Shown here piece after piece: positions 9,009-63,439 of a stretch of DNA of 64,000 nt; within the stretch, counting starts at the first letter, position 1; every line of letters starts with the position of its first letter. A model generated the notes under the pieces. It saw only the letters and a list, made by a program, of their open reading frames with translations. It had not been told where the DNA came from and ran no database searches. Where the stretch lies: the NCBI GenBank assembly GCA_964348915.1, contig CAYGEM010000001.1, positions 10,360-74,359 on the forward strand, written 5' to 3'. The position numbers and the translations under genes are program-made. Source of the DNA: an uncultured Candidatus Saccharibacteria bacterium (lineage in GTDB: Bacteria; Patescibacteriota; Minisyncoccia; UBA6257; Colwellbacteraceae).

Positions 9009-9028
9009 TTTCGCGATTCGTTCGTTTT

Positions 9029-42874: not shown

Positions 42875-42883
42875 AAATATATT

Positions 42884-44035: not shown

Positions 44036-44036
44036 A

Positions 44037-44450: not shown

Positions 44451-44486
44451 GTTTTTCCTAGTTTTTTGTTGGCCAAGTCATATTAT

Positions 44487-46892: not shown

Positions 46893-46894
46893 GT

Positions 46895-48436
46895 TTATAT
46901 TTTGTCTCGGATATTCTCTAAAATTTTATTCGTCTCTTTTTCCATACCCTCAATCTCCCCCAAAATCTCCTTCGGATCGCGATGATTTGTTTCTTCTTCG
47001 CCGTTGTACGGACTGTAAGTATTGGCCGAGAGAATATAGTCGTTCTCGGCAATTTCTTTCACGGTGGTAAACCATGAGTAAGGTTTGGCGACCGCCTGAT
47101 CTTTGCCCCAAAGCTCTAAGAGTTTTTGGATATCATTTTTATACTGCGGCCCAAACTTTTTGGCGGCGGAAAGTGACGAACCATCACCTTTCATATCGAA
47201 AAACCAAATCTTCTCTTTTTCATCGAGTTTCGGCGCGGATTTCTTTTTGAAAATTAAAAAGCTTGTTTTGACTCCAGCATAGGGCTGAAATACACCGGCC
47301 GGCATTGAGACAACCGCTTCCAATTTTGTATTCTCAAGCAAAAATCGGCGGATATCTTTATCGTCCTTGTTAGTCCCAAAAAGCGAACCCTCCGGCAAGA
47401 TTATGCCGGCCCGGCCACCCGGTTTAAGAGAGTTAATAACATAACCCAAGAAAAGTACCTGCGTCTTTTTTGATTTTACGGGCAAAGTTGGTTTTATTCG
47501 TCCTGCGTCAACCAAACCGGCAAAAGGAGGATTCGTTAAAATAACTTCGTATCTTTTAAGGTCGTTTTCGTCTTCGCTTCCTGCCACTGTATCCTTTCGT
47601 AAAATGCGCGCGCCCTCAAGCCCGTGAAGCAAAAGATTCATCAACGCCAGCCGCGAAACTTCCGGCGCGACATCATAACCGGTAAAAGTTTTTTGTGTGA
47701 GAAACTGCCACTGTTCTTTATTTAGTTTGTCGCCGTAGCCGACTTTACGGCCGTTTTTCTCTTCAATATTTTTAGCGTCGCTATTTTTAAATTTGATATA
47801 ATCGTACGCTGTTATTAAAAATCCGCCCGTGCCGCAAGCCGGGTCAAGAATTGTTTCGCCTATTTTTGGATTTACCATTTCTACAATCGCGCGGATAATA
47901 TGTCGCGGCGTGAGAAACGCGCCTAATTTGCCGGCCGAACTAATCTGACTCAAAAGATATTCATAGAGATCGCCCTTTACATCTGTGTCTAAACTGGAAA
48001 ATTCTATGGTGTCTATAATTTCAACTACCCTCTTCAATGTGGCCTCGTCGGGAATAAGCAATTTCGCGCCGTGAAATATCTGGCTAATGTTTGAGTGGCC
48101 ATTGTGCAACTCTTCAATAAACGGGAAAATCTCATCGCGGACAAACTTAAATAAATTACTACCCATTTTTACTCGCCATCGCGACCAGCGGAATCGGTCA
48201 TTTTTGCCGGAAAAAATTGACTTGTGTTTATGGCCGGTGATTTTTTCTTCTCTTTCCATTGCAATATCCTGTTCTTCAAGCATCTTAAGAAAGAAAAAGA
48301 AACTCAACTGCTGGATGCGAGTCATTGGGTCGCTCAACCCCTGAGCAAACAGATAGTTATTCAAAATATCTATCTTCTGCTTGAATTCCTCTCTTAATTG
48401 TTGGATATTATTTTGCATATTGTTGGGAAAAAACAC
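46895..48436 (-). CDS. hsdM: Type I restriction-modification DNA methyltransferase subunit
   Basis: N6-adenine MTase motif IV LTNPPFAG, AdoMet motif DPACGTGGFL, HsdM N-terminal domain; 513 aa. Confidence 0.9.
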   Translation of the reverse strand: MFFPNNMQNNIQQLREEFKQKIDILNNYLFAQGLSDPMTRIQQLSFFFFLKMLEEQDIAMEREEKITGHKHKSIFSGKNDRFRWSRWRVKMGSNLFKFVRDEIFPFIEELHNGHSNISQIFHGAKLLIPDEATLKRVVEIIDTIEFSSLDTDVKGDLYEYLLSQISSAGKLGAFLTPRHIIRAIVEMVNPKIGETILDPACGTGGFLITAYDYIKFKNSDAKNIEEKNGRKVGYGDKLNKEQWQFLTQKTFTGYDVAPEVSRLALMNLLLHGLEGARILRKDTVAGSEDENDLKRYEVILTNPPFAGLVDAGRIKPTLPVKSKKTQVLFLGYVINSLKPGGRAGIILPEGSLFGTNKDDKDIRRFLLENTKLEAVVSMPAGVFQPYAGVKTSFLIFKKKSAPKLDEKEKIWFFDMKGDGSSLSAAKKFGPQYKNDIQKLLELWGKDQAVAKPYSWFTTVKEIAENDYILSANTYSPYNGEEETNHRDPKEILGEIEGMEKETNKILENIRDKI

Positions 48437-50696
48437 TTTCGTTTAGTTCTTTGATAGTGGTTTTTAATGTTCCCTCATCAAAGACTCGTAAAACATAATT
48501 AAGTCCGCCGATATGCTGGAAAATCGGTTCGTTAAAAATAGAAACCTCAATCGGCGCGCGGCGAGCGATATACTGGCTTTTAACCAAACGCAAAATCTTG
48601 GCCTGCTCCGGCTCAAACTGCTTATCGATCATCCACGCTTCAAATAGTTCACCGATCCGGTCTTCGTATAATTGTTCTTCGGTGGGGAGATTTTGAATGC
48701 CAAGGGCTGTTTTTATAAAGTCATTCAATGTCCCGATTGGATAACGATACGCTTCGCGCAGATTCACTTCATTGAAATAAAACTTTGGCGAATTGAGGCG
48801 GTCCGCTAAAATTTGAGATTCGTCATTTGAAAGTTCCTGACCTTCTTTTACTTTTTTCACCAATGGCTCGGCTTGCGCAAGCTCCTGAACCTGTCGCTCC
48901 CAGGCAGTTTGATAATCATCGGAATCTATTCTTTCTCCTTCGGCTCCAATTTCAACATAGGCGCGTTTTATGACGACATCAATATTTTCTTGAGCGGTCT
49001 CTGCAACCTGAATGAAACCGGCCGGTACTTCAATATCTTCTTCAATAAAGTCCTTAGCTTCCGTTCCCCACGGGATACCAGCTTTGGCTTTGGCGATTTC
49101 TGAATATGGATTATAGCTTTCGTCATTAAAATACTTAGTAACGCCGGCAAAATCATAAATCCTAAATGATTTTTTATTAATCCGAGAATCAAGACGACTG
49201 CCACGGCCACGCATTTGCTGATATAAGATCGGCGATTGTGTCGGACGAACCATTATTATATTTTCAACCATTGGCGCATCAATGCCGGTATCCATCATAC
49301 CCACAGAAACAGCAATCGTTGGCATTTCTTCCAGCTTAAAGCGGCGAATAGCCCCACGAGGGTCTTCGGTGTCGGAAGTAATAACCTCCGCAAATCTGCC
49401 TTTATATTCCGGCTTAGCTTGATTGAAATAATACGCAAGCTGAGCGGCATGGCGTTTGGTCACCGCATAAACAATGGCTTTGCGCAATTTCTTCGGCTCG
49501 CCTGTGGTGAGCGAAGTCGAACCACGTTTTTCTTCTTCAGTAAAATAAGCTTGGACAACCTGCTCGTTTCTGGCCGGTATGTTTATCTTTCTTTCCAAGT
49601 CTTCCGGACTGTAATCTTCGCCTTCAAAATTTACACCTTCAAGCGATACTTTCGTATCAATCTGCACAATGTCATAGCCAGCCAGAAAGCCGTCTTTGAC
49701 TCCTCGGCGGATACTGTAAACAAAAGTCGGCTTTCCTTTCTGTTCCGTCTCGTCCCAACAGCCGAAAAGTTTATAAGTATTGCGATCAACATATCCGCTG
49801 GGCGTTGCCGTCATCCCAATGCGAATGGCATCAAAGTGTGAGAGGACGCCGTTATAAATACCGAAAATTGAGCGATGAGCTTCATCAGAAATGATCACAT
49901 CAAAATAACCGCTGGTGAATAATGAAAGCTGGGAATAGAGAGTCGGGAGAGTTGAAATGATTATTGACGATTCGTCGCGCTGTTTGCCGCCATAGAGCAG
50001 TTTGGATGGGTAGTCTTTAAGGATTTCGTCAAAGACTTCCTTTGTTTGAACTCCCAGATCAATGCGATCCACCAAAAAGAGAGCGCGATTGGCAAGTCCG
50101 GCTTCAAATAACCGTTTGAGATAGAGAGCTATTGTATCGGTCTTGCCAGTACCTGTTGCCATAACCAAAAGCATTTTGCGTTTGCCACCTTCAATAGCCT
50201 TGTCCATAATCTGCATCGCTTCTTTCTGGTATGGTCGAGGCGAGCGCCATTCACCGCCCTTGTAATACTTTTCCGGAATGGGAATAATCGACAATGGTTT
50301 CTGCTCAAGCCGGAGGGTTTGGATTTTCTCAAGATCGCGTTGCGAGAAAAAAGTAGCGACTTTTTGTTCCGGCCGATATTTATAGTCCCAAAAATAAATC
50401 TCTTCGCCGTTTGATAAAAAAATGAAACCGGCATTGATGGATTCCGCATATGAAAGAGCCTGTTGCTTGGCGGAAGCTGGATCAACAGCGAAACGCTTTG
50501 CCTCAATAACGGCTATGGCGCAACCCCTTGAATCTTTGAGAATATAATCAGCTCGGCCGTTCTGCGAAGTCTCTTCCGTAGAAACCTGATTTTTATTTTC
50601 AATATCCCACTCAGCTTCGCGAAGTCTGCGGTCAATGAGAATCCGCGCGTCGGTCTCACGCATAAACTTTTTTCCGGTTGTATCTTGAGTAGTCAT
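48408..50696 (-). CDS. hsdR: Type I restriction enzyme endonuclease/helicase subunit
   Basis: N-terminal PD-(D/E)XK nuclease (ADYIL...IEAKRF), SF2 helicase motifs MATGTGKT and IISDEAHRS; 762 aa; overlaps hsdM by 29 nt. Confidence 0.85.
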   Translation of the reverse strand: MTTQDTTGKKFMRETDARILIDRRLREAEWDIENKNQVSTEETSQNGRADYILKDSRGCAIAVIEAKRFAVDPASAKQQALSYAESINAGFIFLSNGEEIYFWDYKYRPEQKVATFFSQRDLEKIQTLRLEQKPLSIIPIPEKYYKGGEWRSPRPYQKEAMQIMDKAIEGGKRKMLLVMATGTGKTDTIALYLKRLFEAGLANRALFLVDRIDLGVQTKEVFDEILKDYPSKLLYGGKQRDESSIIISTLPTLYSQLSLFTSGYFDVIISDEAHRSIFGIYNGVLSHFDAIRIGMTATPSGYVDRNTYKLFGCWDETEQKGKPTFVYSIRRGVKDGFLAGYDIVQIDTKVSLEGVNFEGEDYSPEDLERKINIPARNEQVVQAYFTEEEKRGSTSLTTGEPKKLRKAIVYAVTKRHAAQLAYYFNQAKPEYKGRFAEVITSDTEDPRGAIRRFKLEEMPTIAVSVGMMDTGIDAPMVENIIMVRPTQSPILYQQMRGRGSRLDSRINKKSFRIYDFAGVTKYFNDESYNPYSEIAKAKAGIPWGTEAKDFIEEDIEVPAGFIQVAETAQENIDVVIKRAYVEIGAEGERIDSDDYQTAWERQVQELAQAEPLVKKVKEGQELSNDESQILADRLNSPKFYFNEVNLREAYRYPIGTLNDFIKTALGIQNLPTEEQLYEDRIGELFEAWMIDKQFEPEQAKILRLVKSQYIARRAPIEVSIFNEPIFQHIGGLNYVLRVFDEGTLKTTIKELNESVFSQQYAK

Positions 50697-50701
50697 AATA
50701 T

Positions 50702-51379
50702 TTAAATCAATTTGTGCTCTTTGAAGCTGAAATAATTCGCCTTACTGACGATCACGTGATCGTTTACATCAATTCCGAGAAGCTTGCCGGCATCTACCAA
50801 TTGCTTGGTTATGTCCGAGTCTTCCTGTGATGGCGATGGATCTCCGGCTGGATGATTATGAGCAATAATTACTTGCGCGGCTAAATGCCTGACTGCCGGC
50901 TCAAATACTTCCCGAGGGTGGACAAGATTGGTGTTAAGGGAGCCGACTGAAACGATTTCCCTCTTAATTTCTTGATTTCTGGAATCCAAAAAGAAAATTA
51001 CGAAATGCTCTTTTTTATGATCACGAATATCCTTGAGTTCATCCCAAACGTCTTTTGGCGATAAAAGCAAAACTGATTGTTTGTTTTGCAGGTGCCGGCG
51101 ACCGAGTTCGTAACAAGCAACGATTTCACACACTTTCGCACTTCCAAGACCGAATGTGTTTTTTAATTCTTTAACCGAAGCCTTAGCTAAACCAACGCCG
51201 CTGAATTTCCTTAAAATCTTGCTTGATAATTCCACGACATTAATACCTTCGCTTCCGGTCCGCAAGAGAATTGCCAAAAGTTCCGAATCTGAAAGCCGCT
51301 CTGGACCGTATTTCTCCAGTTTCTCTCGCGGCCTATCAATTTTTGGCAGATCTTTTATTTTCATATTCCGATCTTCCAA
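50702..51379 (-). CDS. radC: RadC-like JAB/MPN domain protein
   Basis: JAMM motif HNHPAGDPSPSQED, N-terminal helix-hairpin-helix-like region; 225 aa. Confidence 0.8.
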   Translation of the reverse strand: MEDRNMKIKDLPKIDRPREKLEKYGPERLSDSELLAILLRTGSEGINVVELSSKILRKFSGVGLAKASVKELKNTFGLGSAKVCEIVACYELGRRHLQNKQSVLLLSPKDVWDELKDIRDHKKEHFVIFFLDSRNQEIKREIVSVGSLNTNLVHPREVFEPAVRHLAAQVIIAHNHPAGDPSPSQEDSDITKQLVDAGKLLGIDVNDHVIVSKANYFSFKEHKLI

Positions 51380-52242
51380 TCGCCCTTTTCGATAAATGCC
51401 TCAATGGTCTGACGCTTGGCTTTATTAAGGGCGTTTGAATGAGAAAGACGGCTCTGTTTGGAATATTCAGAAAGCGTCACGATTTTTTTGTGTTCCAAAT
51501 ACGCCAATCGCTTGTGATAACTGTTAGTGAGTGCGCGACCGACAATTTCCTCCATGACCGCGGTTTTACTGTTTGTTTGAAATTCTTTGAAAGCATCATA
51601 GTATCTGGCACGATCGATAAACTTAATATTGATGGGCACGTATCCTTCGCGGATAAGCAGGTAATTATTGATCGCTCGGCCGATTCTGCCATTGCCGTCG
51701 ATAAACGGGTGCGCGTATTCGAAAGCAAGATGTAGCCGGGCGATCCTTCGCACGATATGTTCATGGCTTGAGGCGTTGTATTCCGCGAGCATCATTTTCA
51801 TGAGTTCGGGAATTTCTGATGCGTGCGGCGCGATATGAGTACCTACGCGTACACGCTCCTCGCCAATGCGGAATCTTCCGGCGATGTCATCGCGGATATT
51901 GGAAATGAGCATTTTATGCAAAAACAAAATAACCTCTTCAGATAGTTCCTGTTCTTTCGCTCGCTTGTCGATGTATTCCACCACCCGCGCGAGATTTTTC
52001 GCTTCGAAAAGCTCGCGCTCTGAGACGTATCGATCAAGATCGATCTGGAGAAGAATCTTTTCCGTCTCTTCGAGAGTAAGCGTACTGTTCTCGATGGCGT
52101 TGGAGTTGTACACCTGCTCCGGAATTTCCGCTTCCGCGATCATCTTGAGCAATGACTCTTTTCCGGGTGAGACGCGGTAATAGCGCTCGCGAAGTTCGAT
52201 TATTTTTTTGTATATATTTAGCGTTCTAGCCATATAAGGCAA
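51361..52242 (-). CDS. Fic/Doc family protein (probable AMPylator)
   Basis: Fic motif HPFIDGNGRIGRA; 293 aa; overlaps the radC-like gene by 19 nt. Confidence 0.85.
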   Translation of the reverse strand: MPYMARTLNIYKKIIELRERYYRVSPGKESLLKMIAEAEIPEQVYNSNAIENSTLTLEETEKILLQIDLDRYVSERELFEAKNLARVVEYIDKRAKEQELSEEVILFLHKMLISNIRDDIAGRFRIGEERVRVGTHIAPHASEIPELMKMMLAEYNASSHEHIVRRIARLHLAFEYAHPFIDGNGRIGRAINNYLLIREGYVPINIKFIDRARYYDAFKEFQTNSKTAVMEEIVGRALTNSYHKRLAYLEHKKIVTLSEYSKQSRLSHSNALNKAKRQTIEAFIEKGDWKIGI

Positions 52243-52365
52243 GTATAGTAAAGTTAACCATTATTGTCAAATAATCGTGAATTATACTAAAAAATCTACT
52301 TATTTCACGGTATTGATTCATCAAAACGCTATTTTGTGCAGTTAGATCACTGTAGTGGACAAAAT

Positions 52366-52460
52366 CGGTACTTTTTGTCCAGTGTACTTATACTATGCTA
52401 AAAATCCCTTTTTTGCATAGTACAGCGTGGAAACTATGCAAATAGTACAAAAGCGTACTA
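52366..52460. promoter_or_regulatory. Cluster of palindromic repeats (putative operators) upstream of the Fic gene
   Basis: TGGACAAAA-N8-TTTTGTCCA perfect inverted repeat, then TACTATGC...GCATAGTA and GCATAGT...ACTATGC inverted pairs and duplicated ATAGTACA; a TATAAT on the minus strand at about 52281-52286 upstream of the Fic ATG. Confidence 0.4.
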
Positions 52461-52821
52461 ATCGCGAAATGTCCATTTAATTTGCTTAAGTTAAGCAAAT
52501 CGCGCCAAGCTCTCAAATTTCGTCTTACGGCTTGGACCGGGTGCAGAAGGTGGGCAAAACTCTTACCCTCGGCACAAAGCCCGCCACAAGGGCAACCAAG
52601 TGGTGAAAACGGCATCCAAAAACCGCCTTCTTGTCCGGCCGTAGTTTTAACGAAGGCGGATCGGGCGGTCATGGTTTAAATCGTGGCAACCGGCACTTTC
52701 GATTGTCGTCCTCTCTTGTGCGGTTCGAATTTCAGCGGACCGAGATGTATTTGAAACGAAAGCCCTTCATTCGTGTATGTGGCTACGAATACTTTTTTCT
52801 TCTTTGTCCGCTTCATTTTTC

Positions 52822-53394
52822 TTATTTTGTCTTCTCCACCCTCTCCGCGTATGTTCCGGTTTCGGTATTAACGCGTATAATATCGTCCTGATTGATGAAA
52901 AGCGGGACATTAATTTTGACTCCCCCTTCAATAATGACCGCTTTGGTTCCGCCCTGAGCGGTGTTGCCCTTAATCCCCGGAGGAGATTCAATAACCTTAA
53001 AATCCATCTTTATCGGGATTTGAATTTTAATCGGCCTGCCATCTATCACAAAAGCGGTAACGGGAGTTTGAGGTTTTAAAAATTGCTTATTGTCTCCCAG
53101 AATTTCTTCGGAGATCATAAAACGGTTTTTGGGATTGCCGACTTCCTGAAACCAATATTCTTTCCTGTGCCCATAAAGAAAAATCGACTCCATTCTCTTC
53201 AGGTCTGTTTCTTCGATTTCATCGCTCGCTTGCCAAGTACGGTCAACAACTTTGCCGCTTACCAAACTCTTCAGCTTAGTCGTCACCACCGCTTTTCTTT
53301 GCTGCATGCGCATAAACGATACGTCCAGAACTTCAAAAATGTCGCCAGCAAATTTAATAACTACTCCTTTTTTGAGATCGTTGTATGAAAGCAT
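52822..53394 (-). CDS. efp: Elongation factor P
   Basis: 190 aa; EF-P N-terminal KOW-like and two OB domains (GDIFEVLDVSFMRMQQRKAVVTTKLKSLVSGK). Confidence 0.85.
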   Translation of the reverse strand: MLSYNDLKKGVVIKFAGDIFEVLDVSFMRMQQRKAVVTTKLKSLVSGKVVDRTWQASDEIEETDLKRMESIFLYGHRKEYWFQEVGNPKNRFMISEEILGDNKQFLKPQTPVTAFVIDGRPIKIQIPIKMDFKVIESPPGIKGNTAQGGTKAVIIEGGVKINVPLFINQDDIIRVNTETGTYAERVEKTK

Positions 53395-53430: not shown

Positions 53431-54903
53431 TTATTCGGAAGGATTGACCTCTTTCGATTCCTCGACGGGAGATTTTTCCTCCGGCAGTTTCACCTCCATC
53501 GCCTCGGAAAGAGCCCGGCGCAAATCGTCAATGATTATAGGCCTTTTTTCCTTCGGCTTCAAAATTTTATCGAGCGACTGCTCCTCGCGCCGTTCTTTTT
53601 TTTCTCCCGCCCCTTCTCCACCCAGCCATTCAGAAGCAATCATTTTTTCGATGGCGACGCGCGGCACGCCGTACTGCCGACGGCTTTGTTCGATAATCAA
53701 ATCGGCAAAAGATTCTTTAGGCGGTTCGGTCAAGGTTATGGCCGGCAACACCTCGGCGGAAAAAGGATTGGAAACGGCGCCGTCGATGAGAAGTTTGACG
53801 TAAACGCTCGCCCGATCGAGATTGATAAGGTCGTTCGCGGTAAAATCAGGAGCGAATTCTTTTTCCAAAAATTCGGCGTCTTCGGCGCCGACCCGGAAAC
53901 AAACTATCGTGCCGACGTTGCCGAAAATCGCCGGCCGGACTTTCTCCTCGTCCAGTTGTTCAATGTACTGATGAGCCAGAGTGAGGCAAAGCCGGTATTT
54001 GCGCGCTTCGGAGAGAATGGCGGCGAACGATTCGGTGGAAAAATTCTGGAATTCGTCAATATACAGATAGAAATCGCGCCGTTCCTCCTCCGGCGTGTCT
54101 ATCCGGCTCATCGCGGCCTGCTGGATCTTGGTAACGAACATCGCTCCCAAGAGCGCGGAATTGTCTTCTCCTATCCGGCCGCGCGACAAATTGGCAATCA
54201 GGATTTTCCCCTCGTCGATTGCTTTCCGGATATTAATGGTGGATTTCGGCTGGGCGATAATATTCCGGACAAGAGGATTGGAGATGAACTGGCCGACTTT
54301 GTTCTGGATTGCCGCTACGGCTTCGATGGCGTAACGGTCGGTATATCTGGCGAATTCATTCTCCCAGAAGCTTTTGATAACCGGGTCGGCGACATTTTCG
54401 ACAATCTTGCGGCGATAATCTTTTTCGGAAAGCATCCGGATTATCCCGACGATGCTCGAACCGGGAAATTCAAGCAGAGCCAACAGAGTGTTGTTCAAAA
54501 TGTATTCCATGCGAGCAGACCAGACATCCGGCCATATTTTTTTGAAAACGCCCATCAATCCGGAAGCGATCAGATGCCGGTATTCGCCGGAGACGGCCTC
54601 CAAAGGGTTGAATCCCACGGGATATTCGGTGTCCGTCGGATTGAAATAAATCACGTCGTCAATCCGGTCGGCCGGAATATAACGCAGGATTTGTTCGGCG
54701 AATTCGCCGTGCGGGTCGACCAAAGCCATGCCTTCGCCATTACGGATATCGTGGATGAACATGTTCTCCATCAATTTGGTCTTTCCGCTGCCGGTTTTGC
54801 CGACGATATACAAATGCTGGCGCCGATCGCGACGCTTGATTCCGAAAGGCGTGTTTTTACCTCGAAAATTAGTTTGTCCGAAAAAATTGATTTCGTTCAT
54901 CAA
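53431..54903 (-). CDS. VirD4/TraD/TraG-family (T4SS coupling-protein-like) P-loop ATPase lacking an N-terminal membrane domain
   Basis: Walker A YIVGKTGSGKT, adjacent VDPHGE motif typical of T4CPs, Walker B LYIDEFQNF; 490 aa soluble. Confidence 0.5.
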   Translation of the reverse strand: MMNEINFFGQTNFRGKNTPFGIKRRDRRQHLYIVGKTGSGKTKLMENMFIHDIRNGEGMALVDPHGEFAEQILRYIPADRIDDVIYFNPTDTEYPVGFNPLEAVSGEYRHLIASGLMGVFKKIWPDVWSARMEYILNNTLLALLEFPGSSIVGIIRMLSEKDYRRKIVENVADPVIKSFWENEFARYTDRYAIEAVAAIQNKVGQFISNPLVRNIIAQPKSTINIRKAIDEGKILIANLSRGRIGEDNSALLGAMFVTKIQQAAMSRIDTPEEERRDFYLYIDEFQNFSTESFAAILSEARKYRLCLTLAHQYIEQLDEEKVRPAIFGNVGTIVCFRVGAEDAEFLEKEFAPDFTANDLINLDRASVYVKLLIDGAVSNPFSAEVLPAITLTEPPKESFADLIIEQSRRQYGVPRVAIEKMIASEWLGGEGAGEKKERREEQSLDKILKPKEKRPIIIDDLRRALSEAMEVKLPEEKSPVEESKEVNPSE

Positions 54904-54905
54904 AT

Positions 54906-56228
54906 TTATCCTATAGGCAGATTCGGCGGCGGCGCGCCTTTAACGGCCTTGACCGGACGAAGACCTGTCCCCTCAACAATCGTGGAAACCGGCAGATGGT
55001 AAATGCTTGCCAGTTCCTCAAGATTCAAAACCGGAAGATGGTACAAGTCCCGATGGATAAAATATCTGGTTTCCGGGAAAGAACGGTTCAAATAATTTTT
55101 GTAAATATTCTTTTTCCTCATCTGCAGAAGATATTTTCGGAAGAAAAAGCGGGGTTTCATAGTCCAAGTCGCCTTTGCCGGACCGAGCCAGTTCAAGTTG
55201 TTATCGGCGTAAAGCCGGGATGCGCCCATTAAAGCGGTAGTAATGCCGGAATTGTATGCGTCCATCTTGGCAATATAAACTTGCCGGATGGTTGTAGTGT
55301 AGCCCTGTTTGGAAATTTTATTCCCTACCGCTTTCATTCTGTCGGTCTCAACCGGAGAATATAAACGGAATGTCTTCTGCTCTTCTTTTTTATCTTCCGG
55401 CCAATCCGGCAATTCGAACGGCGCCTTGATTAAATTGCGAAGAAAATGAAATGTTTCTTCCACCATGGCGCCGATGAAATTCTTTTGGGTTTTGGCTTTT
55501 TGCCCGGTGGCCATTGCCTCAATCGCCTTTTTTCCTTCCTCTTTCCACTTTTCCGAGCTGGGCCGGATAAGAATTTGCATCCAGATGTGTTCTCCTTCTT
55601 TCAAATTCGACATAAGCTCGACAATGACGGAAATCGGGTCGACGCGCGCCTCTTCTTCTTTCCGGGCGGTTTCCTCAAAAAAATAAGTATAAGTCCGGAT
55701 GGGGAAATAATCCGGTTTTTTCAGAATAAACTCGACGCCCCACAAGTTATATTCGTCGTTCGGCAGATCCGGCGGCAGTTCCTTGGTATAATCCTCTGTC
55801 TCGACAATCTCGGCGTTCGGGTACTGCGAGAAAAAAGAGGACTCAATGATGTTGCGGAGTTTCTCGGGCGCCCGGACGTAAAATCTGACTCCGCCATCTG
55901 ACGAGCCGGCAATCTCGAGCGACATCCGATTATTCAATTTACCCGTAGTAATCCAAGTTTCTTCCCAGTGTATGGAAATATCCATCGAATACAAGCTGGC
56001 GAAAACATGCTCCATGGCTTTCGGCGTCCGGATATTTTCCTTGGGTATTTTTATCTCGTAAACCCGCCAATTCAGATTGCGAAGATATTTTTTCTGCAGA
56101 CGGATGCCGCGGCTGTAAAACAGATAATAAACAACCAAAACGATGGCAACGATAGGTGCCGCCTTGAAAGAATACGAAAACGCGTTGGTTATGAACGATA
56201 ATGCAAGTTGGATTGCATCAGCCATCAA
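54906..56228 (-). CDS. Hypothetical membrane-anchored protein partnered with the T4CP-like ATPase
   Basis: N-terminal TM (AAPIVAIVLVVYYLFYS) then roughly 400-aa soluble domain; its stop is 3 nt from the ATPase start and its start overlaps the upstream regulator by 4 nt. Confidence 0.4.
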   Translation of the reverse strand: MMADAIQLALSFITNAFSYSFKAAPIVAIVLVVYYLFYSRGIRLQKKYLRNLNWRVYEIKIPKENIRTPKAMEHVFASLYSMDISIHWEETWITTGKLNNRMSLEIAGSSDGGVRFYVRAPEKLRNIIESSFFSQYPNAEIVETEDYTKELPPDLPNDEYNLWGVEFILKKPDYFPIRTYTYFFEETARKEEEARVDPISVIVELMSNLKEGEHIWMQILIRPSSEKWKEEGKKAIEAMATGQKAKTQKNFIGAMVEETFHFLRNLIKAPFELPDWPEDKKEEQKTFRLYSPVETDRMKAVGNKISKQGYTTTIRQVYIAKMDAYNSGITTALMGASRLYADNNLNWLGPAKATWTMKPRFFFRKYLLQMRKKNIYKNYLNRSFPETRYFIHRDLYHLPVLNLEELASIYHLPVSTIVEGTGLRPVKAVKGAPPPNLPIG

Positions 56229-57043
56229 AGTGTATAAGTTCCCCGGCTGACCAGCTTGAATCTTCTGTCTTTTATCAATTCGTTATGCACGGTCGGCGGG
56301 TGACAGCCGGTCGTTTCCGCAATTTCGCGGAAATGCATAGGCACCGGATGTTTCTTGAGAATGAGGTAAATTTTGGCGCGTACAGTCCGCGGATTTATCT
56401 CCTCCCAATGGCTCAAGCCCAGGTCGCCGTACGGACCGATGCCAATTTTTTTGGAAACAGAAAGATAATTCATCGCCACTACCTCGGTTACGCCGTGCGG
56501 TTTTATCGCCTGACGCAGTATTTCCTCGAAATGCTCGACGCATTTCAACTTTTTGATAAGGTCGGTATGGATGGAATGCAGACGGCGATAAACATCTTCG
56601 CCCAGATACCAGAAATCGTGATAGGTGTCGTTCTCTCGGAAATGCTTGGGATATTCCGCGATCCGATAAATGAACTTGATTTGGTTTCCGAAAATATCCG
56701 GCTCCGTTCCGCTTTTAAACAATGAACGCAATTCATTCTTGGCCTGCTCGTGTCTTTTTATTCCGCCAGAAGAACCAAGATATTCCTTGGTAAAATCAAG
56801 CAGGTCATCCGCCTCCGACAACTTTTTCAATTCGATTTTGACGCGATTCACGGCATAAACCTCGACCTGTCTTATCCTTTCGCGAGTAATGCCGTAAACA
56901 TCTCCCAACTCCTGAAGAGTGGAAGGGTCGGGCGAAGATAAGCCAAATCTGTTTTCCAGCACGGTTTGGCTCCGACTATCTAAATCGGCCTTACGAATCA
57001 TTCTCTCCACAAGGCCGGCTATATCAAATTTGGTTTCGTTCAT
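56225..57043 (-). CDS. Sigma-70 region-4 domain DNA-binding regulator
   Basis: LQELGDVYGITRERIRQVEVYAVNRVK closely matches the sigma-70 region 4.2 HTH; no region 2; 272 aa. Confidence 0.5.
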   Translation of the reverse strand: MNETKFDIAGLVERMIRKADLDSRSQTVLENRFGLSSPDPSTLQELGDVYGITRERIRQVEVYAVNRVKIELKKLSEADDLLDFTKEYLGSSGGIKRHEQAKNELRSLFKSGTEPDIFGNQIKFIYRIAEYPKHFRENDTYHDFWYLGEDVYRRLHSIHTDLIKKLKCVEHFEEILRQAIKPHGVTEVVAMNYLSVSKKIGIGPYGDLGLSHWEEINPRTVRAKIYLILKKHPVPMHFREIAETTGCHPPTVHNELIKDRRFKLVSRGTYTL

Positions 57044-57070
57044 GGCAATTAATTCTTAATGAAGATGATA

Positions 57071-57964
57071 CTATTTTTTACGCTTCGCGTCAAGGTGATA
57101 CCACGCGGAAAGAATCGGGCTGGCCAGGAAGATCGAGGAATAAGTGCCGACGGTGGTGCCGACAAGAATAGTGAGGGCGAAATAACGTATAGAAGCCGGC
57201 CCCCAGAAATAAACGGCGAGCAAAACGAGAATCAAGGTAAGAGAGGTGTTGACGGAACGCCGGAAAGTTTCATTTATGCTCCGGTTTATCGTTTTGTCCA
57301 CATCGTCATTCCGGCGAAGGAAATTCTCCCGGATACGGTCGAAAACGACGATGGTGTTATGCGCGGAAAAACCGACAATCGTAAGTAAAGCGACAATGAG
57401 ATTGGTGTCGGCGACAAACCCCTTGAAATGGCTTAAAATCGCGTAAAAACCGGCGGCAATGACCGCATCGTGGACCAAAGCGATAAGCGCGGCAATGCCG
57501 TATTTATAAGAGCTTATCGGCCGTGAAACGCTCGAAAAGGCCAAGGTGATATAAAGGGAAATGACGAGAAGAACCAGAGCGATGGCGAGAAAGGCCTTGT
57601 TCTTCAGCTCGGAAGACACCGAAGGCGAAGTGCTCCAAAAATCCAGCTCCTCTGCTCCGGGAAAACGCGCTTTCAGCGCTTCAAAATCAGCCGCCTTTCG
57701 TTCCGGGGACATTTCCGGAAGAAGAAGGGAGTAGGAATCGGCAGAAGCGTCATAAGAAATTATCGGCTCGGAAACCTTCAGAGAATCCCGCAGAAAAACC
57801 CTGACCTCTTTTTCTTCGGCGCCGGGCAAGCGCATCTGCCAAAGGGAACCGCTTTTGAAATCGACTCCCGGAGTAAACCAGTAAAAGACGAGGGCCGCTG
57901 TCGCCACGGCGACCATGAGAAACGAGAATGACAGAAATATTTTTTTGTGCTTGATGATATCCAT
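57071..57964 (-). CDS. secF: Protein-export membrane protein SecF
   Basis: 297 aa, 6 TM, SecDF family, adjacent to secD. Confidence 0.85.
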   Translation of the reverse strand: MDIIKHKKIFLSFSFLMVAVATAALVFYWFTPGVDFKSGSLWQMRLPGAEEKEVRVFLRDSLKVSEPIISYDASADSYSLLLPEMSPERKAADFEALKARFPGAEELDFWSTSPSVSSELKNKAFLAIALVLLVISLYITLAFSSVSRPISSYKYGIAALIALVHDAVIAAGFYAILSHFKGFVADTNLIVALLTIVGFSAHNTIVVFDRIRENFLRRNDDVDKTINRSINETFRRSVNTSLTLILVLLAVYFWGPASIRYFALTILVGTTVGTYSSIFLASPILSAWYHLDAKRKK

Positions 57965-57997
57965 TTTATTATGCTTGTTTGTCTTCTTTATTATTGT

Positions 57998-59293
57998 TTA
58001 TTTCCCGCGCATGAATACCCTCAGCATAGTCCGCGTGACGGTAATGGCCGAGAATAAACTGACAATCACGCCGAAAAGTAAAGTCAGGGCGAAACCGCGG
58101 ACAAAACTGGAAGTCAGATAGTAAAGGATAAGGGAGCTCAATATCGTGGAAGCATTGGAGTCGCGAATGGAAGTCCAGGCGCGCAAAAATCCGGACTCAA
58201 TTGCCTCTTTCATCGCGATGCCGGCTTTGCGTTCTTCTCTCGTTCTTTCAAAAATAAGGATGTTCGCGTCCACGGCCATGCCGACGGAAAGGATGAATCC
58301 GGTAATGCCCGCCAGACTCATTGTGAAGTGCGGAATAAGTTTGAAAACCGCCAAAGAGAAAAAGATATAAAAAATCAAGGCGACGGAAGAAATCAAACCG
58401 AAGGAGCGATAAAAAACCATCATGAAAATTATCACCAAGACGACGCCTATCGCGCCGGCCAGAATCATTTTATCCAAGGAATCGGCCGCGGCCGTGGCGT
58501 TCACCGTACGTTGATTAATCAGTTTTATCGGCGCAGAAATCGCGCCGGCATTAAACCTCTCGGCGAACTTTCTCGCCACGTCCGGCGTTATTCCCTCGCC
58601 GGAAATAGAAGCCACGCCACCGATAATTTTTTCATTCACCCGGGGACAACTACCTGACGGATTATCCGGAAAAATAAAATTATTATCGACGAAAATACAA
58701 AGGGGCTTATCGACATTGCGTTCGGTTACGATTTCGAACGTTTTAGTTCCTTCAGCATCCAAAGTCAGGGAAACAAAACTTTGCCCTAATTCGTCGTACT
58801 CAACCGACGCTTTCTTAATATTCCGGCCAGCTAATTCAGTCCGGTCGCAAACCACCGCGTTATTCTCCGCCCGACAATTCTCCCGAAAATCCAAAACCGG
58901 CGTTTCGCCTATCATCTCGGCCGCCTTGCCCAAATCTTTCACCCCGGCAATTTCCACCAACAGCTGATAATGGTCTCCTTTTTTCGCCAGAACCAATTTC
59001 GGCTCGGAAACGCCGTAAAAATTGATCCTTCTTTCGATGACGTCCTTCAGACCGTTGACGATTTTCTGATGGTCGGCCTGATCAATGCCGGTTAAATCGA
59101 TATCGTAAACGAGCGTCGCTCCGCCAACCAAATCAAGACCGAGCCGCCACGGCATATAACGATTGAAGTACAAATCGGGAACAACGATGCCGGCAATTTT
59201 CGCGCCGGGCTGGGGCAAAACGAAAAAAGCGGCGATAACGGCAAGAAGCACGATCGCAAATAAAGCCATTATATATTTACCGGATTTTTTCAT
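57998..59293 (-). CDS. secD: Protein-export membrane protein SecD
   Basis: 431 aa; N-terminal TM, periplasmic domain, C-terminal TM bundle with the GLDLVGG motif. Confidence 0.85.
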   Translation of the reverse strand: MKKSGKYIMALFAIVLLAVIAAFFVLPQPGAKIAGIVVPDLYFNRYMPWRLGLDLVGGATLVYDIDLTGIDQADHQKIVNGLKDVIERRINFYGVSEPKLVLAKKGDHYQLLVEIAGVKDLGKAAEMIGETPVLDFRENCRAENNAVVCDRTELAGRNIKKASVEYDELGQSFVSLTLDAEGTKTFEIVTERNVDKPLCIFVDNNFIFPDNPSGSCPRVNEKIIGGVASISGEGITPDVARKFAERFNAGAISAPIKLINQRTVNATAAADSLDKMILAGAIGVVLVIIFMMVFYRSFGLISSVALIFYIFFSLAVFKLIPHFTMSLAGITGFILSVGMAVDANILIFERTREERKAGIAMKEAIESGFLRAWTSIRDSNASTILSSLILYYLTSSFVRGFALTLLFGVIVSLFSAITVTRTMLRVFMRGK

Positions 59294-60561: not shown

Positions 60562-61557
60562 TTAATTCAAGAGGACAATCTCCCGGCTTCTCGCCTCCAA
60601 ACTCACTCGAGCAAAATTGACGATAATCAGCAGTTCATAAAGGAGAAAGCCAAGAAAAGCCGTCGGCCAGAGAAAGAGAAAAGAAACCGACTTAAGCAAA
60701 ACAAACATAACGACGCCCGCGACTAAAGAGACACGAGCGGGAGGAAAGGAAGAAAGCAAGCTGGAAATTTTCTGGTCGATGAAAGCATATAGATTTTCTC
60801 CGGTGGTCTTCTCCGGGTCGATCGGCCCCAAAGACGTTTCCAATTGTTTTTCAAAGTCCGCGGAAATTTTATCGATTGCCTCAACTCTGGTCCGGTCGGG
60901 AATCTTTTCAAATTCACCCGGCTCTAACTGTTTCCGCAAGAGATCTTCGGCTGTTTTCTCCAAAAAATCTTTTGTTTTCATTTCGAAAGAAAAACCCGGA
61001 GAATAAGAATTCAAAATAGGATTGAGCGGCCGGAGCATGGAGGAAAAAGCATCAAGCGAAAACGCCTTGGCCGGATTAAACGTCACGCCGTAAATTACAG
61101 AGATAAAAACAATCATGCCGATTATGACTTTCGGCAAAACAACGTAGGCGGTTTTTAAAAAATCGAGTTTCAAACAATTCTCCGCGTATCTCCGTCCGGC
61201 CCGCTCACCCAAAAGAACGAAGATGAAAAGAAACGCTCCGGCGGCCAGAAAAACCAGCGCCGGTATCTCTCCGGCCTTGACGAGTCCGCTCGCGGAAACG
61301 AGCGCGATGGACTGAAGAAGGACGGCGAAAGATATTTTGCCGAGCCCCTTGATCAAAAACGCCTGCAGACAAAAGAAAGCAAAAAGGAAAATTATGGAAA
61401 TCGTTGAAAGTAAAAGATTATTTTCCGCGATAAAATAACCCGACCCGATTGCCGAAAAAACGCCCAGGGAGACAATCAGGGCGATTTTCCACAATGAATA
61501 ATCGACATCAGCCTCGCTGGTTGTCTTCGTCGGTTCCGGATTCGGGTTGTTTACCAT
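60562..61557 (-). CDS. Hypothetical polytopic membrane protein inserted between dnaK and dnaJ
   Basis: About 6 TM helices plus a soluble C-terminal segment; the start is uncertain (the ORF overlaps the dnaK 3' end by 49-118 nt depending on start). Confidence 0.4.
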
Positions 61558-63439
61558 TCTCTTTATTATACATCGCTTCGCCGATTCGCTGAATAACGGC
61601 GGACAATTCGGCGATAGCCGATTCAATCGTTTCTTTTTCTTTACCTTCGATGGTTTTCTTTAACGCGTCGATTTTTTCCTGAATCTCGCTTTTTAGCTCG
61701 ACGGGAATTTTTTCTCCCGCGTCGGCTAACGCTTTTCCGGCGGTATAAACAAGGGTCTCGCCGCGATTTACCGCCTCAACCAAATCTTTTTTGTTCTTAT
61801 CTTCGTCGGCATGTTCAGCCGCCTCTCTTTTCAATTTTTCTATTTCTTCTTTGCTTAGGGCGGTCTGCGCTTCGATACGGACCGTCTGACTTTTCCCGGT
61901 GGCTTTATCCGCCGCCTTCACGCTTAAAATGCCATTGGCGTCGATATCAAAAGAGACCTCCACTTGCGGTATGCCGCGCGGCGCCGGCGGAAGCCCGTCC
62001 AGAATAAACCGAGCCAAAGTTTTGTTGTCCGCGGACATGGGCCGTTCTCCCTGGGTAACGTGGATTTCCACCGAGGTCTGGCTGTCGGCGGCAGTAGAAA
62101 AAATCTGGGTTTTGGCGGTCGGAACCGTGGTGTTCTTGAGAATCATCGGTGTGGCCACTCCACCCATGGTTTCAATACTCAAGGTAAGCGGGTTGACATC
62201 AAGAAGCAGAATGTCTTTCACGTCGCCCTGAAAAATTCCAGCCTGGATAGCCGCGCCCAAAGCCACCACTTCATCCGGATTTATGGTCCGGTTCGGTTCT
62301 TTGCCAAAAAGTTTTTTCACCGCTTCCTGTATCGCCGGCATCCGGGTCTGTCCTCCGACCAAAACAATCTGGTCAAGGTCGGAAGTTTTAAATCCGGCTT
62401 CTTCCACGGTTTTCTTTGTCAGCTCAATGGAACGGTCGATATATTCTTTGACCAATTCTTCCAGTTTGGCCCGGGTAATCTTCATCAGGAAATGCTTCGG
62501 TCCGGCCGCGTCCGAACTGATATAAGGCAGATTGATTTCGGTCTCAAAAGACGAAGAGAGTTCATGCTTGGCGCGCTCCGCCGCTTCTTTCAAACGCTGA
62601 AGCGCCAGAGGGTCTTTGGAAATATCAACACCTTCTTGTTTCTTGTATTCCTTAACCAGATATTCGTTGATTTTTTTGTCAAAATCGTCGCCGCCCAAAT
62701 GAGTGTCGCCGCCGGTCGATTTTACTTCAACCGTGTCGTCACCGACTTCAAGCACGGAAACGTCAAAAGTCCCTCCGCCGAAATCGTAAACAATGATTTT
62801 CTCGTTTCCTTTCTTATTCAAACCGTAAGCCAAAGCCGCGGCCGTCGGCTCGTTTAAAATCCGGCGTACTTTGAAACCGGCAACCTCTCCGGCGTTCTTG
62901 GTCGCCTGACGCTGGGAGTCGTCGAAATAAGCCGGAACGGTAATAACCGCTTCTTCTATTTTCTCGCCAAGACGCATTTCCGCGTCGGCCTTTATTTTCG
63001 CGAGCACCATGGCGGAAATTTCCTCGGGCTTGTACCACTTACCTTGCCCCGAGGACTTCGAGTGAGCCTCAGTCGAACTCCCCGTCGAAGGAGCTTGCCC
63101 TGAGCTTGCCGAAGGGTCTCCCATTTTTATTTCCACTCCGCCGTTTTCCGACTCGCGCAATTCGTAAGGAAGCCATTCACGGTCGCGTTTCACTTCCGGG
63201 TCGGTCCATTTCCGGCCAATAAGCCGCTTCACCGAAAAAATGGTGTTTTTCGGGTTAGTAATGGCCTGGCGCTTGGCCACCAGTCCGACCAGCCGTTCGT
63301 TCGCCTTGCTTAAAGCCGTAACCGACGGGGTGGTACGATTGCCTTCGCTGTTCTCGATAATCGCCGGCTCGCCATCGGCGCCGACATAAGCCACCGCCGA
63401 GTTAGTCGTTCCTAAATCTATTCCGATTATTTTTGCCAT
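61508..63439 (-). CDS. dnaK: Chaperone DnaK (Hsp70)
   Basis: [28 protein letters not shown]; 643 aa. The long antisense ORF 61964..62857 (+) is rejected. Confidence 0.97.

Follow-up and report, generated by a model that had tools for sequence, protein, structure and literature searches.

What does an ATPase of coupling-protein type do when it lacks its own membrane anchor and lies away from any relaxase or T4SS gene? This question is raised by three minus-strand ORFs in the window, the 64-kb stretch of DNA analysed here. The initial annotation described them as three tightly linked genes encoding a sigma-70 region-4 HTH protein (g3), a 440-aa protein with one N-terminal TM segment and a large soluble domain (g2) and an ATPase with the hallmarks of T4SS coupling proteins (T4CPs) (g1), and interpreted them as a split coupling-protein-like machine. 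Our analysis supports this interpretation overall; with regard to function, we infer, with a probability of about 0.6, that the cassette is a domesticated split coupling motor that is tethered by g2 and most likely serves the T4SS of the phylum.

Layout of the cassette and its surroundings

The coordinates of the three genes and their tight junctions were confirmed, with the gene order g3, g2 and g1 (Table 1). The stop codon of g3 overlaps the start codon of g2 (TGATG), and the ATG of g1 lies 5 nt past the g2 stop. This translational coupling counts in support of a partnership between g2 and g1. The lengths from the ATG starts agree with those of the database proteins P0001 and P0381, whose sequences are the same or nearly the same. 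A promoter-like site in the 3' end of secF gives only a hint of a cassette promoter, being the top match in the region (10/12) where the number of such sites equals the chance expectation.

The GC content of the cassette resembles that of the flanking core genes and differs from that of the low-GC island. A defence island containing type I R-M, RadC and Fic genes is located 1 kb downstream of the cassette, and comEC is present at 39359-40642, 13 kb away. Consistent with the initial annotation, the scanned ORFs of the window include no VirB4, VirB6 or relaxase. The ORFs of at least 500 aa encode PBP, HsdM, HsdR and an 801-aa product with no family match, and the remaining ones were assigned as EF-G and DnaK from size and position, without a family scan.

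Table 1. Features of the three-gene cassette, with positions in the window
Feature	Position	Strand	Description or evidence
g3	56225-57043	-	272 aa; DNA-binding, sigma-70 region 4 HTH and HARE-HTH-like winged helix
g2	54906-56225	-	439 aa from ATG at 56225; 440 aa from TTG (54906-56228)
g1	53431-54900	-	489 aa from ATG at 54900; 490 aa from TTG (53431-54903)
Promoter-like site TTGACG-17-TATCAT	57065-57093	-	3' end of secF, ~20 nt upstream of g3 ATG
g3 sigma-70 region 4 HTH, residues 20-69	56837-56986	-	Pfam Sigma70_r4, E 7e-11
g3 HARE-HTH-like C-terminal HTH, residues 220-256	56276-56386	-	weak HARE-HTH/IclR-type match, E 0.01
g2 TM helix, residues ~24-46	56091-56159	-	sole hydrophobic helix, Kyte-Doolittle scan
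g2 basic stretch RGIRLQKKYLRNL after TM helix	56073-56111	-	sequence
g2 C-terminal motif and tail, LEELASIYHLP ... PPPNLPIG	54909-55022	-	conserved in homologues
g1 Walker A GKTGSGKT, residues 35-42	54778-54801	-	G35, G38, G40 and K41 invariant in 40 homologues
g1 VDPHGE, residues 62-67			sequence
g1 all-alpha domain, residues ~103-232, inserted in nucleotide-binding domain	54208-54597	-	AF2 helices 106-230
g1 Walker B YIDEFQNF, residues 281-288	54040-54063	-	D283, E284, F285, Q286 and N287 invariant

The ATPase and its two partners

The T4CP hallmarks ascribed to g1 (GKTGSGKT, VDPHGE and Walker B) are all present, the catalytic residues are all invariant in the 40 homologues, and the enzyme appears to be catalytically intact. 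As annotated, g1 has no N-terminal TM segment, and its sole hydrophobic window (residue 140) lies within the all-alpha domain. The C-terminal tail is charged and has low model confidence. HMM searches, chosen beforehand as the check on this protein, identified it as T4CP-like and not as HerA or FtsK. Pfam TrwB_AAD_bind (PF10412) covered residues 23-339 with a score of 50 bits (cut-off 20.5), and T4SS-DNA_transf and TraG-D_C also exceeded their cut-offs. TrwB was the top PDB match by sequence, with the all-alpha domain included in the phmmer alignment; hhalign against TrwB residues 118-393 gave a probability of 94.8% over 268 columns, again including this domain; and Foldseek with the g1 model placed TrwB first (TM 0.63-0.66). 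By Pfam, hhalign and predicted fold, g1 is therefore of the TrwB/VirD4 type. The NCBIfam T4CP model conju_CD1115 scored 55 bits (cut-off 250), and the TraD models scored 28-40 bits (cut-offs 366-647). A profile of the Patescibacteria ATPases scored 83-236 bits when the target was a DUF8128-associated ATPase, compared with 12-26 bits for TrwB/TrsK and no more than 18 bits for VirB4s; by sequence comparison, g1 belongs to a distinct DUF8128-associated ATPase subfamily.

Other assignments of g1 were rejected. FtsK_SpoIIIE reached 13.7 bits (cut-off 24) and covered only the P-loop. HerA yielded a TM score of 0.50, and because only ~20 residues precede the P-loop in g1, a HAS-barrel does not fit; the DUF87 match was marginal (27.6 versus a cut-off of 23.2) and overlapped the T4CP match. 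Regarding a VirB4 motor, the hhalign alignments to TrwK and TrsE spanned 22-47 columns around the P-loop, VirB4_CagE scored 23.9 bits (cut-off 643), and VirB4 was absent from the top 50 Foldseek matches.

The partner g2 is a DUF8128 protein (PF26449); precomputed matches to this model exist for nearly all homologues and for P0001, which is 100% identical to g2. The single N-terminal TM helix was found as annotated, with the ATG start giving 439 aa. An N-terminal TM segment is present in 79 of the 89 DUF8128 family members, and the net charge of the family is -0.7 before and +1.6 after this segment. The predicted topology is an N-out helix followed by a large cytoplasmic alpha/beta domain, which refines the large soluble domain of the initial annotation; in the predicted models, the fold of this domain appears to resemble the N-terminal domain (NTD) of VirB4, a domain that mediates VirB4-VirB4 contacts and contacts with VirB3/VirB8. 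The likeness is one of fold only: hhalign of DUF8128 against TrwK, TrsD and phage G gp155 stayed under 1% probability, and none of the VirB4 N-terminal Pfam families was recurrent among the 89 members. Near the C-terminus, residues E404, E405, A407, H411, P413, P434, L437 and P438 are near-invariant. The homologues from Embleya, phage G and the haloarchaeal plasmid share the motif in this region, as their alignments show, and in fused homologues the motif/tail segment runs on into the ATPase. We propose that g2 is the membrane anchor or docking subunit of g1.

The Pfam match of g3 bears out its annotation as a sigma-70 region-4 HTH protein. Most of its homologues (n=1367) have precomputed PF04545 and PF05066 matches, and the named ones are from Patescibacteria. 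As Pfam detected region 4 alone and not region 2, g3 is not a sigma-70 family sigma factor; the NCBIfam sigma models aligned only over the C-terminal ~50-60 residues and far under their cut-offs. The role of regulator is just one of those possible for g3.

Linkage in Patescibacteria and fused relatives elsewhere

The linkage of the three genes is conserved. The DUF8128 gene lies directly upstream of the ATPase gene in 60 of the 74 Patescibacteria species-representative loci, whereas 13 of the 74 have an ATPase gene without an adjacent DUF8128 gene. The HTH gene is present in 49 of the 63 DUF8128-containing loci and absent from about a fifth. The recurrent chromosomal order is secDF, HTH, DUF8128, ATPase and efp; in Paceibacteria, ABY1-type and Doudnabacteria MAGs, secD, secF, the HTH gene (where present), DUF8128 and the ATPase gene are followed in some loci by efp or mnmA. 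Recurrence of the three-gene set across dozens of divergent genomes places the cassette far beyond chance. No relaxase or VirB4-type mating-pair gene was found in the syntenic Patescibacteria loci examined. Among loci chosen without reference to the ATPase, sequence identity was 57-61% for the ATPase, 48-51% for SecD, 48% for EF-P and 40-52% for MnmA. The ATPase is thus the most conserved gene in its neighbourhood. In Patescibacteria, the cassette is chromosomal and vertically inherited.

The interpretation as a split coupling-protein-like machine gains support from relatives in which the two parts are joined. Bacillus phages G and SPO1, as well as an actinobacterial conjugative plasmid, encode DUF8128 and the ATPase as a single polypeptide; in the fused family phrog_5156, g2 aligns with profile positions 76-312 and g1 with 402-807. 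Matches were obtained to phage G gp156 (hhalign probability 98.6%, E 7e-16), SPO1 gp27.4 (BLASTP E 1e-7) and an 812-aa fused protein of Embleya (probability 89%, E 2e-6). On a haloarchaeal plasmid, the two are encoded by adjacent but separate genes (probability 97.3%, E 2e-11). The gene order on mobile elements is PrgI/VirB3, VirB4-like, fused T4CP, Replic_Relax (MobC) and SLT/NlpC-P60; in phage G, the VirB4-like gp155 adjoins gp156, and gp27.3 of SPO1 is a Replic_Relax protein. This position beside VirB4 and a MobC-type relaxase suggests that the fused protein feeds DNA to a T4SS.

Proposed function and relation to known systems

The cassette may be an ancient chromosomal module with its origin in the coupling ATPase that serves conjugation systems of the monoderm/archaeal type. 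We infer that g1 would be a soluble TrwB-type motor of the FtsK-HerA superfamily, presumably a hexamer, and that g2 would hold it against the membrane on the cytoplasmic side via one N-out TM helix while adding the cytoplasmic DUF8128 domain, whose predicted fold appears to match the VirB4 NTD. Together, they would constitute the split form of a protein composed of an anchor, a VirB4-NTD-like domain and a T4CP motor. Docked at the membrane and driven by NTP, this motor would recruit nucleic acid or nucleoprotein and push it into a membrane channel, most probably the VirB4-type T4SS of the phylum, encoded elsewhere and having no coupling protein of its own; docking might occur through an NTD-NTD contact with VirB4. 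The protein g3 could be a DNA-targeting adaptor in place of a relaxase or merely an operon regulator. The T4SS cluster of Southlakia contains no recognisable coupling protein (PMC10633639). According to PMC12102498, this T4SS is essential, whereas a T4CP homologue of Southlakia, not necessarily orthologous to g1, is non-essential, which counts against a T4SS-coupling role, as does the lack of VirB4, VirB6 and relaxase in the window. The fold-only likeness to VirB4, the 13 loci lacking an adjacent DUF8128 gene and the incomplete presence of the HTH gene also count against the main reading.

The conservation of the ATPase, far above that expected of a conjugative T4CP, hints at a housekeeping role, and a T4SS-independent DNA translocase acting on the cell's own or incoming DNA is a serious, although not a likely, candidate. 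Such a machine might pull in ssDNA via ComEC, as part of the DNA scavenging that nucleotide-auxotrophic Patescibacteria may rely on, or might clear or segregate the chromosome at division as a three-piece FtsK, with g2 as the anchor, g1 as the motor and g3 as a sequence-reading winged helix. The fixed context of secDF, efp and mnmA, the usual presence of a DNA-binding partner with two HTHs and the occurrence of comEC in the same window are consistent with this role. So are data of PMC12102498: T4CP homologues are found in 2,918 of 3,035 Patescibacteria genomes (96%, about two per genome), only 148 of 5,713 lie near virB4, and relaxases are nearly absent from the phylum. The counts of T4CP homologues also speak for the main reading. 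However, ComEC has no direct link to the cassette and was not seen in the other loci examined, some lineages do without the HTH gene, and the relatives outside Patescibacteria all lie in conjugation-type clusters beside VirB4. Papers on the Saccharibacterium TM7x mention FtsK, suggesting that FtsK is not generally missing. A rather improbable variant is that the DUF8128-associated ATPases are a surviving evolutionary VirB4/VirD4 intermediate, with a VirB4-type NTD and a T4CP-type motor, that Patescibacteria domesticated as a near-universal, T4SS-independent housekeeping machine; it might, for instance, be the cytoplasmic motor that brings in nucleic acid from the host or the environment so that nucleotides can be scavenged, and the HTH protein might be its DNA-handling subunit.

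By analogy with effector-translocating T4CPs or with EccC/EccE of T7SS, the g2-g1 pair might feed proteins rather than DNA to a secretion channel, but this is very unlikely: the likeness to EccE is much weaker than that to VirB4, relatives of the g1 subfamily are paired with MobC-type relaxases (PMC5357655), g3 is a DNA-binding protein, and the synteny with secDF may be mere inherited gene order. We give hardly any credence to a remnant or cargo of an ICE, plasmid or prophage, or to an anti-phage defence ATPase of HerA/MADS-like type. Homologues do occur on plasmids and in phages, the defence island is close by, and PADLOC detected a mad8 match (E 8e-15) and weak HerA matches. Nevertheless, mad8 is one of eight MADS genes, the other components of MADS and HerA systems are absent, and g2 and g3 have no relevant PADLOC matches. 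In addition, the GC content is core-like, no integrase, relaxase, att repeats or tRNA was found, purifying selection on the ATPase is very strong, and the recurrence of gene order and flanks in dozens of divergent species largely refutes this origin.

A domesticated split coupling motor would not be a new kind of system, because TM-less T4CPs with partners and orphan T4CPs of Patescibacteria have already been published. The former are a recognised T4CP class (class iii of Llosa & Alkorta, exemplified by TraJ/TraI of pIP501; PMC7431656), in which a separate membrane protein is thought to recruit the TM-less ATPase and thereby recreate a VirD4-type complex. Compared by description, the cassette differs in that g2 is a DUF8128 protein with a putatively VirB4-NTD-like cytoplasmic domain and in that the Patescibacteria pair is chromosomal, phylum-wide and away from T4SS genes. 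The orphan T4CPs of Quinonero-Coronel et al. 2025 (PMC12102498), for which the authors state that exaptation 'cannot be ruled out', are very probably the same ATPases; the DUF8128 and HTH partners, the secDF/efp locus and the putative VirB4-NTD-like fold are not reported in the passages covered here. Much of bacterial diversity belongs to Patescibacteria, nearly all of which carry this ATPase. The present reading turns an orphan annotation into a testable machine, namely the coupling ATPase of conjugation-like modules in monoderms, archaea and phages, split in two, with a membrane partner of apparently VirB4-NTD-like fold. It also suggests a concrete docking mechanism, gives DUF8128 a function-level handle and may connect the lineages of VirB4 and VirD4.

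Similar to TrwB of R388 and VirD4, g1 has a P-loop nucleotide-binding domain that is interrupted by an all-alpha domain; unlike them, it has no N-terminal two-helix TMD, its identity in structural alignments is ~17-18%, and the cassette has no linkage to a relaxase or T4SS. The arrangement of a non-ATPase domain, of putative VirB4-type fold and tethered by a short TM element, ahead of a motor domain recalls VirB4 (TrwK) and VirB3, the latter acting in trans or fused. A free NTD-like protein encoded just upstream is also known from TrsD and TrsE (VirB4) of pGO1/pSK41 and from Patescibacteria T4SS clusters (PMC12102498). However, the motor of g1 is of the T4CP type and aligns with TrwK and TrsE over the P-loop alone, and DUF8128 has no sequence similarity to the TrwK NTD or TrsD. 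Both domains of the pair are found in the phage 'DNA translocation operon' (0305phi8-36 orf200/orf201, SPO1 gp27.3/gp27.4 and phage G gp155/gp156; PMC3357382), where a DUF8128-like domain and a T4CP-like ATPase are fused and encoded beside a DNA-binding protein. The N-terminal domain of the fused protein has no TM helices, and a separate membrane protein may be needed (PMC3357382). In contrast to the core chromosomal cassette, the phage version is thus fused, TM-less and phage-borne, and its partner is a MobC/Replic_Relax relaxase, whereas that of the cassette is a sigma-r4/HARE-HTH protein. The phage region is non-essential for laboratory phage growth.

Layout of the cassette and class of its ATPase

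The cassette comprises g3, encoding a sigma-70 region 4/HARE-HTH protein, g2, encoding a DUF8128 protein with a single transmembrane (TM) helix, and g1, encoding an ATPase. The g3 stop and g2 start codons overlap (TGATG), and 5 nt separate the g2 stop from the g1 ATG; counted from ATG, g2 and g1 have the lengths of identical or near-identical database proteins. The cassette lies 27 nt from secD-secF and 36 nt from efp, with dnaJ and dnaK farther upstream beyond secD-secF, and its GC content resembles that of the flanking core genes. The named homologues of its proteins are from Patescibacteria, the nearest from Liptonbacteria and Colwellbacteria. It is a well-supported real feature. A candidate promoter upstream of g3 was no better than chance level and was rejected. 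Between dnaJ and dnaK, a multi-pass membrane protein without a family match is encoded; its longest ORF overlaps the dnaK 3' end by about 119 nt, and therefore its true start is probably farther downstream.

Positions of the cassette genes and of neighbouring features in the window
Feature	Position	Strand	Remark
mnmA	40663-41787
comEC-like gene	39359-40642	-	427 aa
Defence island	42700-52300		GC 36-43%
hsdS	42884-44035		type I R-M, defence island
25-nt repeat, first copy	44019-44043
25-nt repeat, second copy	44465-44489
801-aa ORF	44487-46892	-
hsdM	46895-48436		type I R-M, defence island
hsdR	48408-50696		type I R-M, defence island
RadC	50702-51379		defence island
Fic protein	51361-52242		defence island; matches PADLOC PDC-S04/SoFic
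Non-coding gap	52243-52821		about 580 nt, Fic gene to efp
efp	52822-53394
g1	53431-54900	-	489 aa from ATG
g2	54906-56225	-	439 aa from ATG
g3	56225-57043	-	272 aa
secD-secF	57071-59293
Membrane protein gene	60562-61626	-	354 aa

The initial annotation had proposed a split machine resembling VirD4/TraD, in which the membrane partner of a type IV coupling protein (T4CP) is a separate protein, and every ATPase motif that it cited was found in g1. In Pfam, g1 matched TrwB_AAD_bind (50 bits, cut-off 20.5, residues 23-339), as well as TraG-D_C, T4SS-DNA_transf and, marginally, DUF87; FtsK_SpoIIIE remained below threshold and covered the P-loop only, and the NCBIfam T4CP and VirB4 equivalogs were all far under their cut-offs. 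TrwB is its closest solved relative by sequence. In hhalign, a 40-sequence g1 profile covered TrwB residues 118-393 in 268 aligned columns, including the all-alpha domain (probability 94.8%), whereas alignment with the VirB4 proteins TrwK and TrsE was confined to the region around the P-loop. In the AF2 model of g1 (pLDDT 83.7), residues 106-230 form a helical insertion in the nucleotide-binding domain; Foldseek ranked TrwB chains at the top (target-normalised TM 0.63-0.66), above HerA (0.50), Cagbeta and DotL. The catalytic residues are invariant in 40 homologues, and no TM segment was found. The Pfam, hhalign and Foldseek results and the lack of a TM segment therefore identify g1 as a TM-less T4CP-type motor, as initially proposed; HerA, FtsK and VirB4 were ruled out by the family scores, the P-loop-only alignment and the fold ranking.

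Scores with the Patescibacteria g1 profile place g1, at the sequence level, in a distinct subfamily that includes a fused actinobacterial homologue from Embleya (236 bits), phage G gp156 (164), a haloarchaeal homologue from Haloterrigena (163) and SPO1 gp27.4 (83), as compared with TrwB (26), the VirB4 protein TrsE (18) and the T4CP-type protein TrsK (12).

The membrane partner and its linkage to the ATPase

Precomputed Pfam matches assign g2 to DUF8128 (PF26449), a family with 1,661 representatives at 50% identity that no paper in the searched literature mentions by this name. The single N-terminal TM helix of g2 is followed by a basic stretch. Such a helix is present in 79 of 89 family members, with a net charge of +1.6 on its C-terminal side and -0.7 on its N-terminal side, which predicts a cytoplasmic location for the large domain of g2. 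The AF2 model of g2 has high confidence scores (pLDDT 89.7, pTM 0.86), and its top 14 Foldseek matches were exclusively chains of TrwK, the VirB4 of R388 (E 4e-5 to 7e-3, probability 0.82-1.00). Because g2 has no P-loop, the matched part is presumably the VirB4 N-terminal domain (NTD, residues 15-400); in R388, VirB4 dimerises through this domain, around which the TM protein VirB3 wraps (PMC9259494). Homology at the sequence level was rejected: hhalign of DUF8128 against the TrwK NTD, TrsD of pSK41 and gp155 of phage G gave probabilities <1%, no VirB4-type family recurred in a permissive Pfam scan of the 89 members, and the DUF8128 profile had no match among PDB sequences. On the predicted structure, DUF8128 would thus be VirB4-NTD-like by fold only. 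The family alignment lacks any conserved stretch of 7-10 residues; in the fused forms, the conserved motif at the C-terminus of g2 (EELAxxxHxP ... PPxxLP) links DUF8128 to the ATPase.

The linkage of g2 and g1 claimed in the initial annotation was borne out by adjacency and by fusions. In a genome scan seeded with the ATPase alignment, 74 of the best 80 of at least 600 matches had enough upstream sequence; among these, DUF8128 is immediately upstream on the same strand in 60 loci, 1.9 kb away in one and not found upstream in 13. DUF8128 and the ATPase are fused in phage G gp156 (825 aa), SPO1 gp27.4 (906 aa) and an Embleya plasmid protein (812 aa), and the 824-position PHROG family phrog_5156 matches g2 in its N-terminal and g1 in its C-terminal part. 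The two genes are separate on a Haloterrigena plasmid, where the gene for a 399-aa DUF8128 protein extends over the beginning of that for the ATPase. Directly downstream of this pair, plasmid pHTS138 encodes an NrS-1 polymerase HBD-domain protein of the primase-polymerase type (8034-9365 of locus L091), which suggests a replication-coupled transfer module on this archaeal plasmid.

In the 13 species-representative loci without an adjacent DUF8128 gene, the ATPase has other housekeeping surroundings and stands beside nrdD-nrdG (upstream; L034, L044, L045, L046 and L058), HIT (L053 and L054) or cytidylyltransferase genes; L070, L071 and L075 also lack an adjacent DUF8128 gene. Some of these loci carry a second T4CP-like paralogue, located just upstream in L070 and L075. 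Their ATPases are equally conserved (55-61% identity) and have longer C-terminal tails.

The g3 protein contains sigma-70 region 4 only and a C-terminal HARE-HTH-type domain; the latter scores weakly in g3 itself, whereas the majority of the 1,367 homologues carry the annotation. The g3 product is a DNA-binding protein that may act as an adaptor or as a regulator. A g3-type gene precedes DUF8128 in 49 of the 63 DUF8128-containing loci among the best 80 of at least 600 matches, and is absent where secF abuts DUF8128, as in Uhrbacteria and Magasanikbacteria MAGs. In most of the loci without it (L018, L028, L043, L050, L060, L068, L078, L080, L082 and L088), DUF8128 directly follows secF. Because the gene is missing there, the HTH protein is an optional component of the module. 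Homology of g3 to SPO1 gp27.3, the phage partner, was rejected; the two show no similarity, and gp27.3 is a Replic_Relax/MobC protein.

Conservation in Patescibacteria and relatives on mobile elements

The order secD-secF-(HTH)-DUF8128-ATPase recurs in MAGs named as Paceibacteria-type, ABY1-type (Uhr-, Magasanik-, Falkow-, Kerfeld- and Buchananbacteria) and Doudnabacteria, and efp and/or mnmA follow the ATPase in several Patescibacteria loci. A conservation ranking from the 80 loci is biased because they were selected by the ATPase; conservation was therefore re-checked on two loci found via DUF8128. In these, the ATPase is 57-61% identical to g1; the corresponding values for the neighbouring proteins are 48-51% for SecD, 48% for EF-P, 40-52% for MnmA, 36-43% for SecF, 30-36% for DUF8128 and 31-40% for the HTH protein. 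The cassette ATPase is a core gene in Patescibacteria.

Several MAG records titled 'Gammaproteobacteria', 'Planctomycetota' or 'Bdellovibrionales' (L015, L029, L039, L044, L048, L054, L057, L058, L068, L073 and L076) hold a Patescibacteria-type ATPase (about 57-65% identity), in several cases with the same cassette upstream. Their taxonomic labels are probably wrong.

A published survey (PMC12102498) reports that 2,918 of 3,035 Patescibacteria genomes encode VirD4-type homologues, with a total of 5,713 copies of which only 148 lie near virB4, and that VirB4 occurs in 80% of genomes; it also describes the Southlakia VirD4-type copy as non-essential, and suggests possible exaptation. The T4SS cluster of Southlakia has no recognisable coupling protein (PMC10633639).

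The relatives on mobile elements have conjugation-like neighbours. The Embleya cluster consists of PrgI (VirB3-like), a VirB4-like ATPase, the fused DUF8128-T4CP, Replic_Relax and an SLT/NlpC-P60 hydrolase; in phage G, the VirB4-like gp155 adjoins gp156; and in SPO1, which also encodes an actin-like segregation protein, the Replic_Relax protein gp27.3 adjoins gp27.4. Replic_Relax (PF13814) belongs to the MobC relaxase superfamily, whose members partner VirD4-type coupling proteins (PMC5357655). In 2012, the phage module was reported as a 'DNA translocation operon' that is non-essential and encodes a translocase without TM helices (PMC3357382). On mobile elements, the DUF8128-associated subfamily therefore serves as coupling ATPase in conjugation-like systems of the monoderm type, and we consider that this context reveals the ancestral job of these ATPases.

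Possible function and the neighbouring defence island

The overall reading of the initial annotation, a TM-less T4CP-type ATPase with a separate membrane partner in conserved linkage, is supported. We propose that g2 is inserted N-out, keeping its VirB4-NTD-like domain on the cytoplasmic side of the membrane, and that it binds g1 through its conserved C-terminal tail; g1 would build a TrwB-like ring. The NTD-like domain would dock this ring onto a membrane platform, most economically the VirB4/VirB3/VirB6 T4SS of the phylum, possibly through an NTD-NTD contact as seen between the VirB4 subunits of R388. ATP hydrolysis could then power the movement of nucleic acid or nucleoprotein into this channel or out of it, and g3 may select DNA or regulate the operon.

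The leading alternative, a T4SS-independent housekeeping DNA translocase serving DNA uptake or chromosome handling, is favoured by the extreme conservation of the ATPase and its fixed housekeeping locus. The frequencies of T4CP (96%) and VirB4 (80%) were not counted as a sign of such independence, because about two copies versus one per genome in roughly 80% complete genomes give the same numbers by sampling alone, by our arithmetic from the survey figures. A comEC-like competence channel gene, which bears on the idea of DNA uptake, lies 13 kb from the cassette in the window, but linkage of the two was not seen in other loci; its product matches only Competence and DUF4131 in Pfam, with no metallo-beta-lactamase domain detected. 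As for replacement of FtsK, papers on TM7x mention FtsK. Translocation of protein by the g2-g1 pair is less likely. So are a mobile-element remnant and a defence system: no tRNA, Rfam match or att-like repeats were found around the cassette or at the edges of the neighbouring island, and the PADLOC mad8 and HerA matches of g1 reflect the shared ATPase fold only.

TM-less T4CPs with a separate membrane partner, such as TraJ/TraI of pIP501 (PMC7431656), are a known class; orphan T4CPs of Patescibacteria and TrsD, a free-standing VirB4-NTD-like protein encoded upstream of an ATPase, already appear in PMC12102498. What appears to be new is the DUF8128-ATPase partnership spanning Archaea, Actinobacteria, Bacillus phages and Patescibacteria, the predicted VirB4-NTD-like fold of DUF8128, its combination with a T4CP-type instead of a VirB4-type motor, and the conserved Patescibacteria locus with a sigma-r4/HARE-HTH gene.

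The low-GC defence island parts efp from mnmA, which are 0-2 kb apart in the related loci L003, L009 and L010. Neither a tRNA nor an Rfam family at the gathering threshold was found in the non-coding gap at its boundary. The 801-aa ORF between hsdS and hsdM had no match in Pfam, NCBIfam or PADLOC and therefore represents an uncharacterised protein within the defence operon. An exact 25-nt direct repeat (TTTGTTGGCCAAGTCATATTATTTA), with copies 446 nt apart, lies across the hsdS start codon and at the end of this ORF, and may represent a duplication of the hsdS 5' end or a site of recombination that switches specificity.
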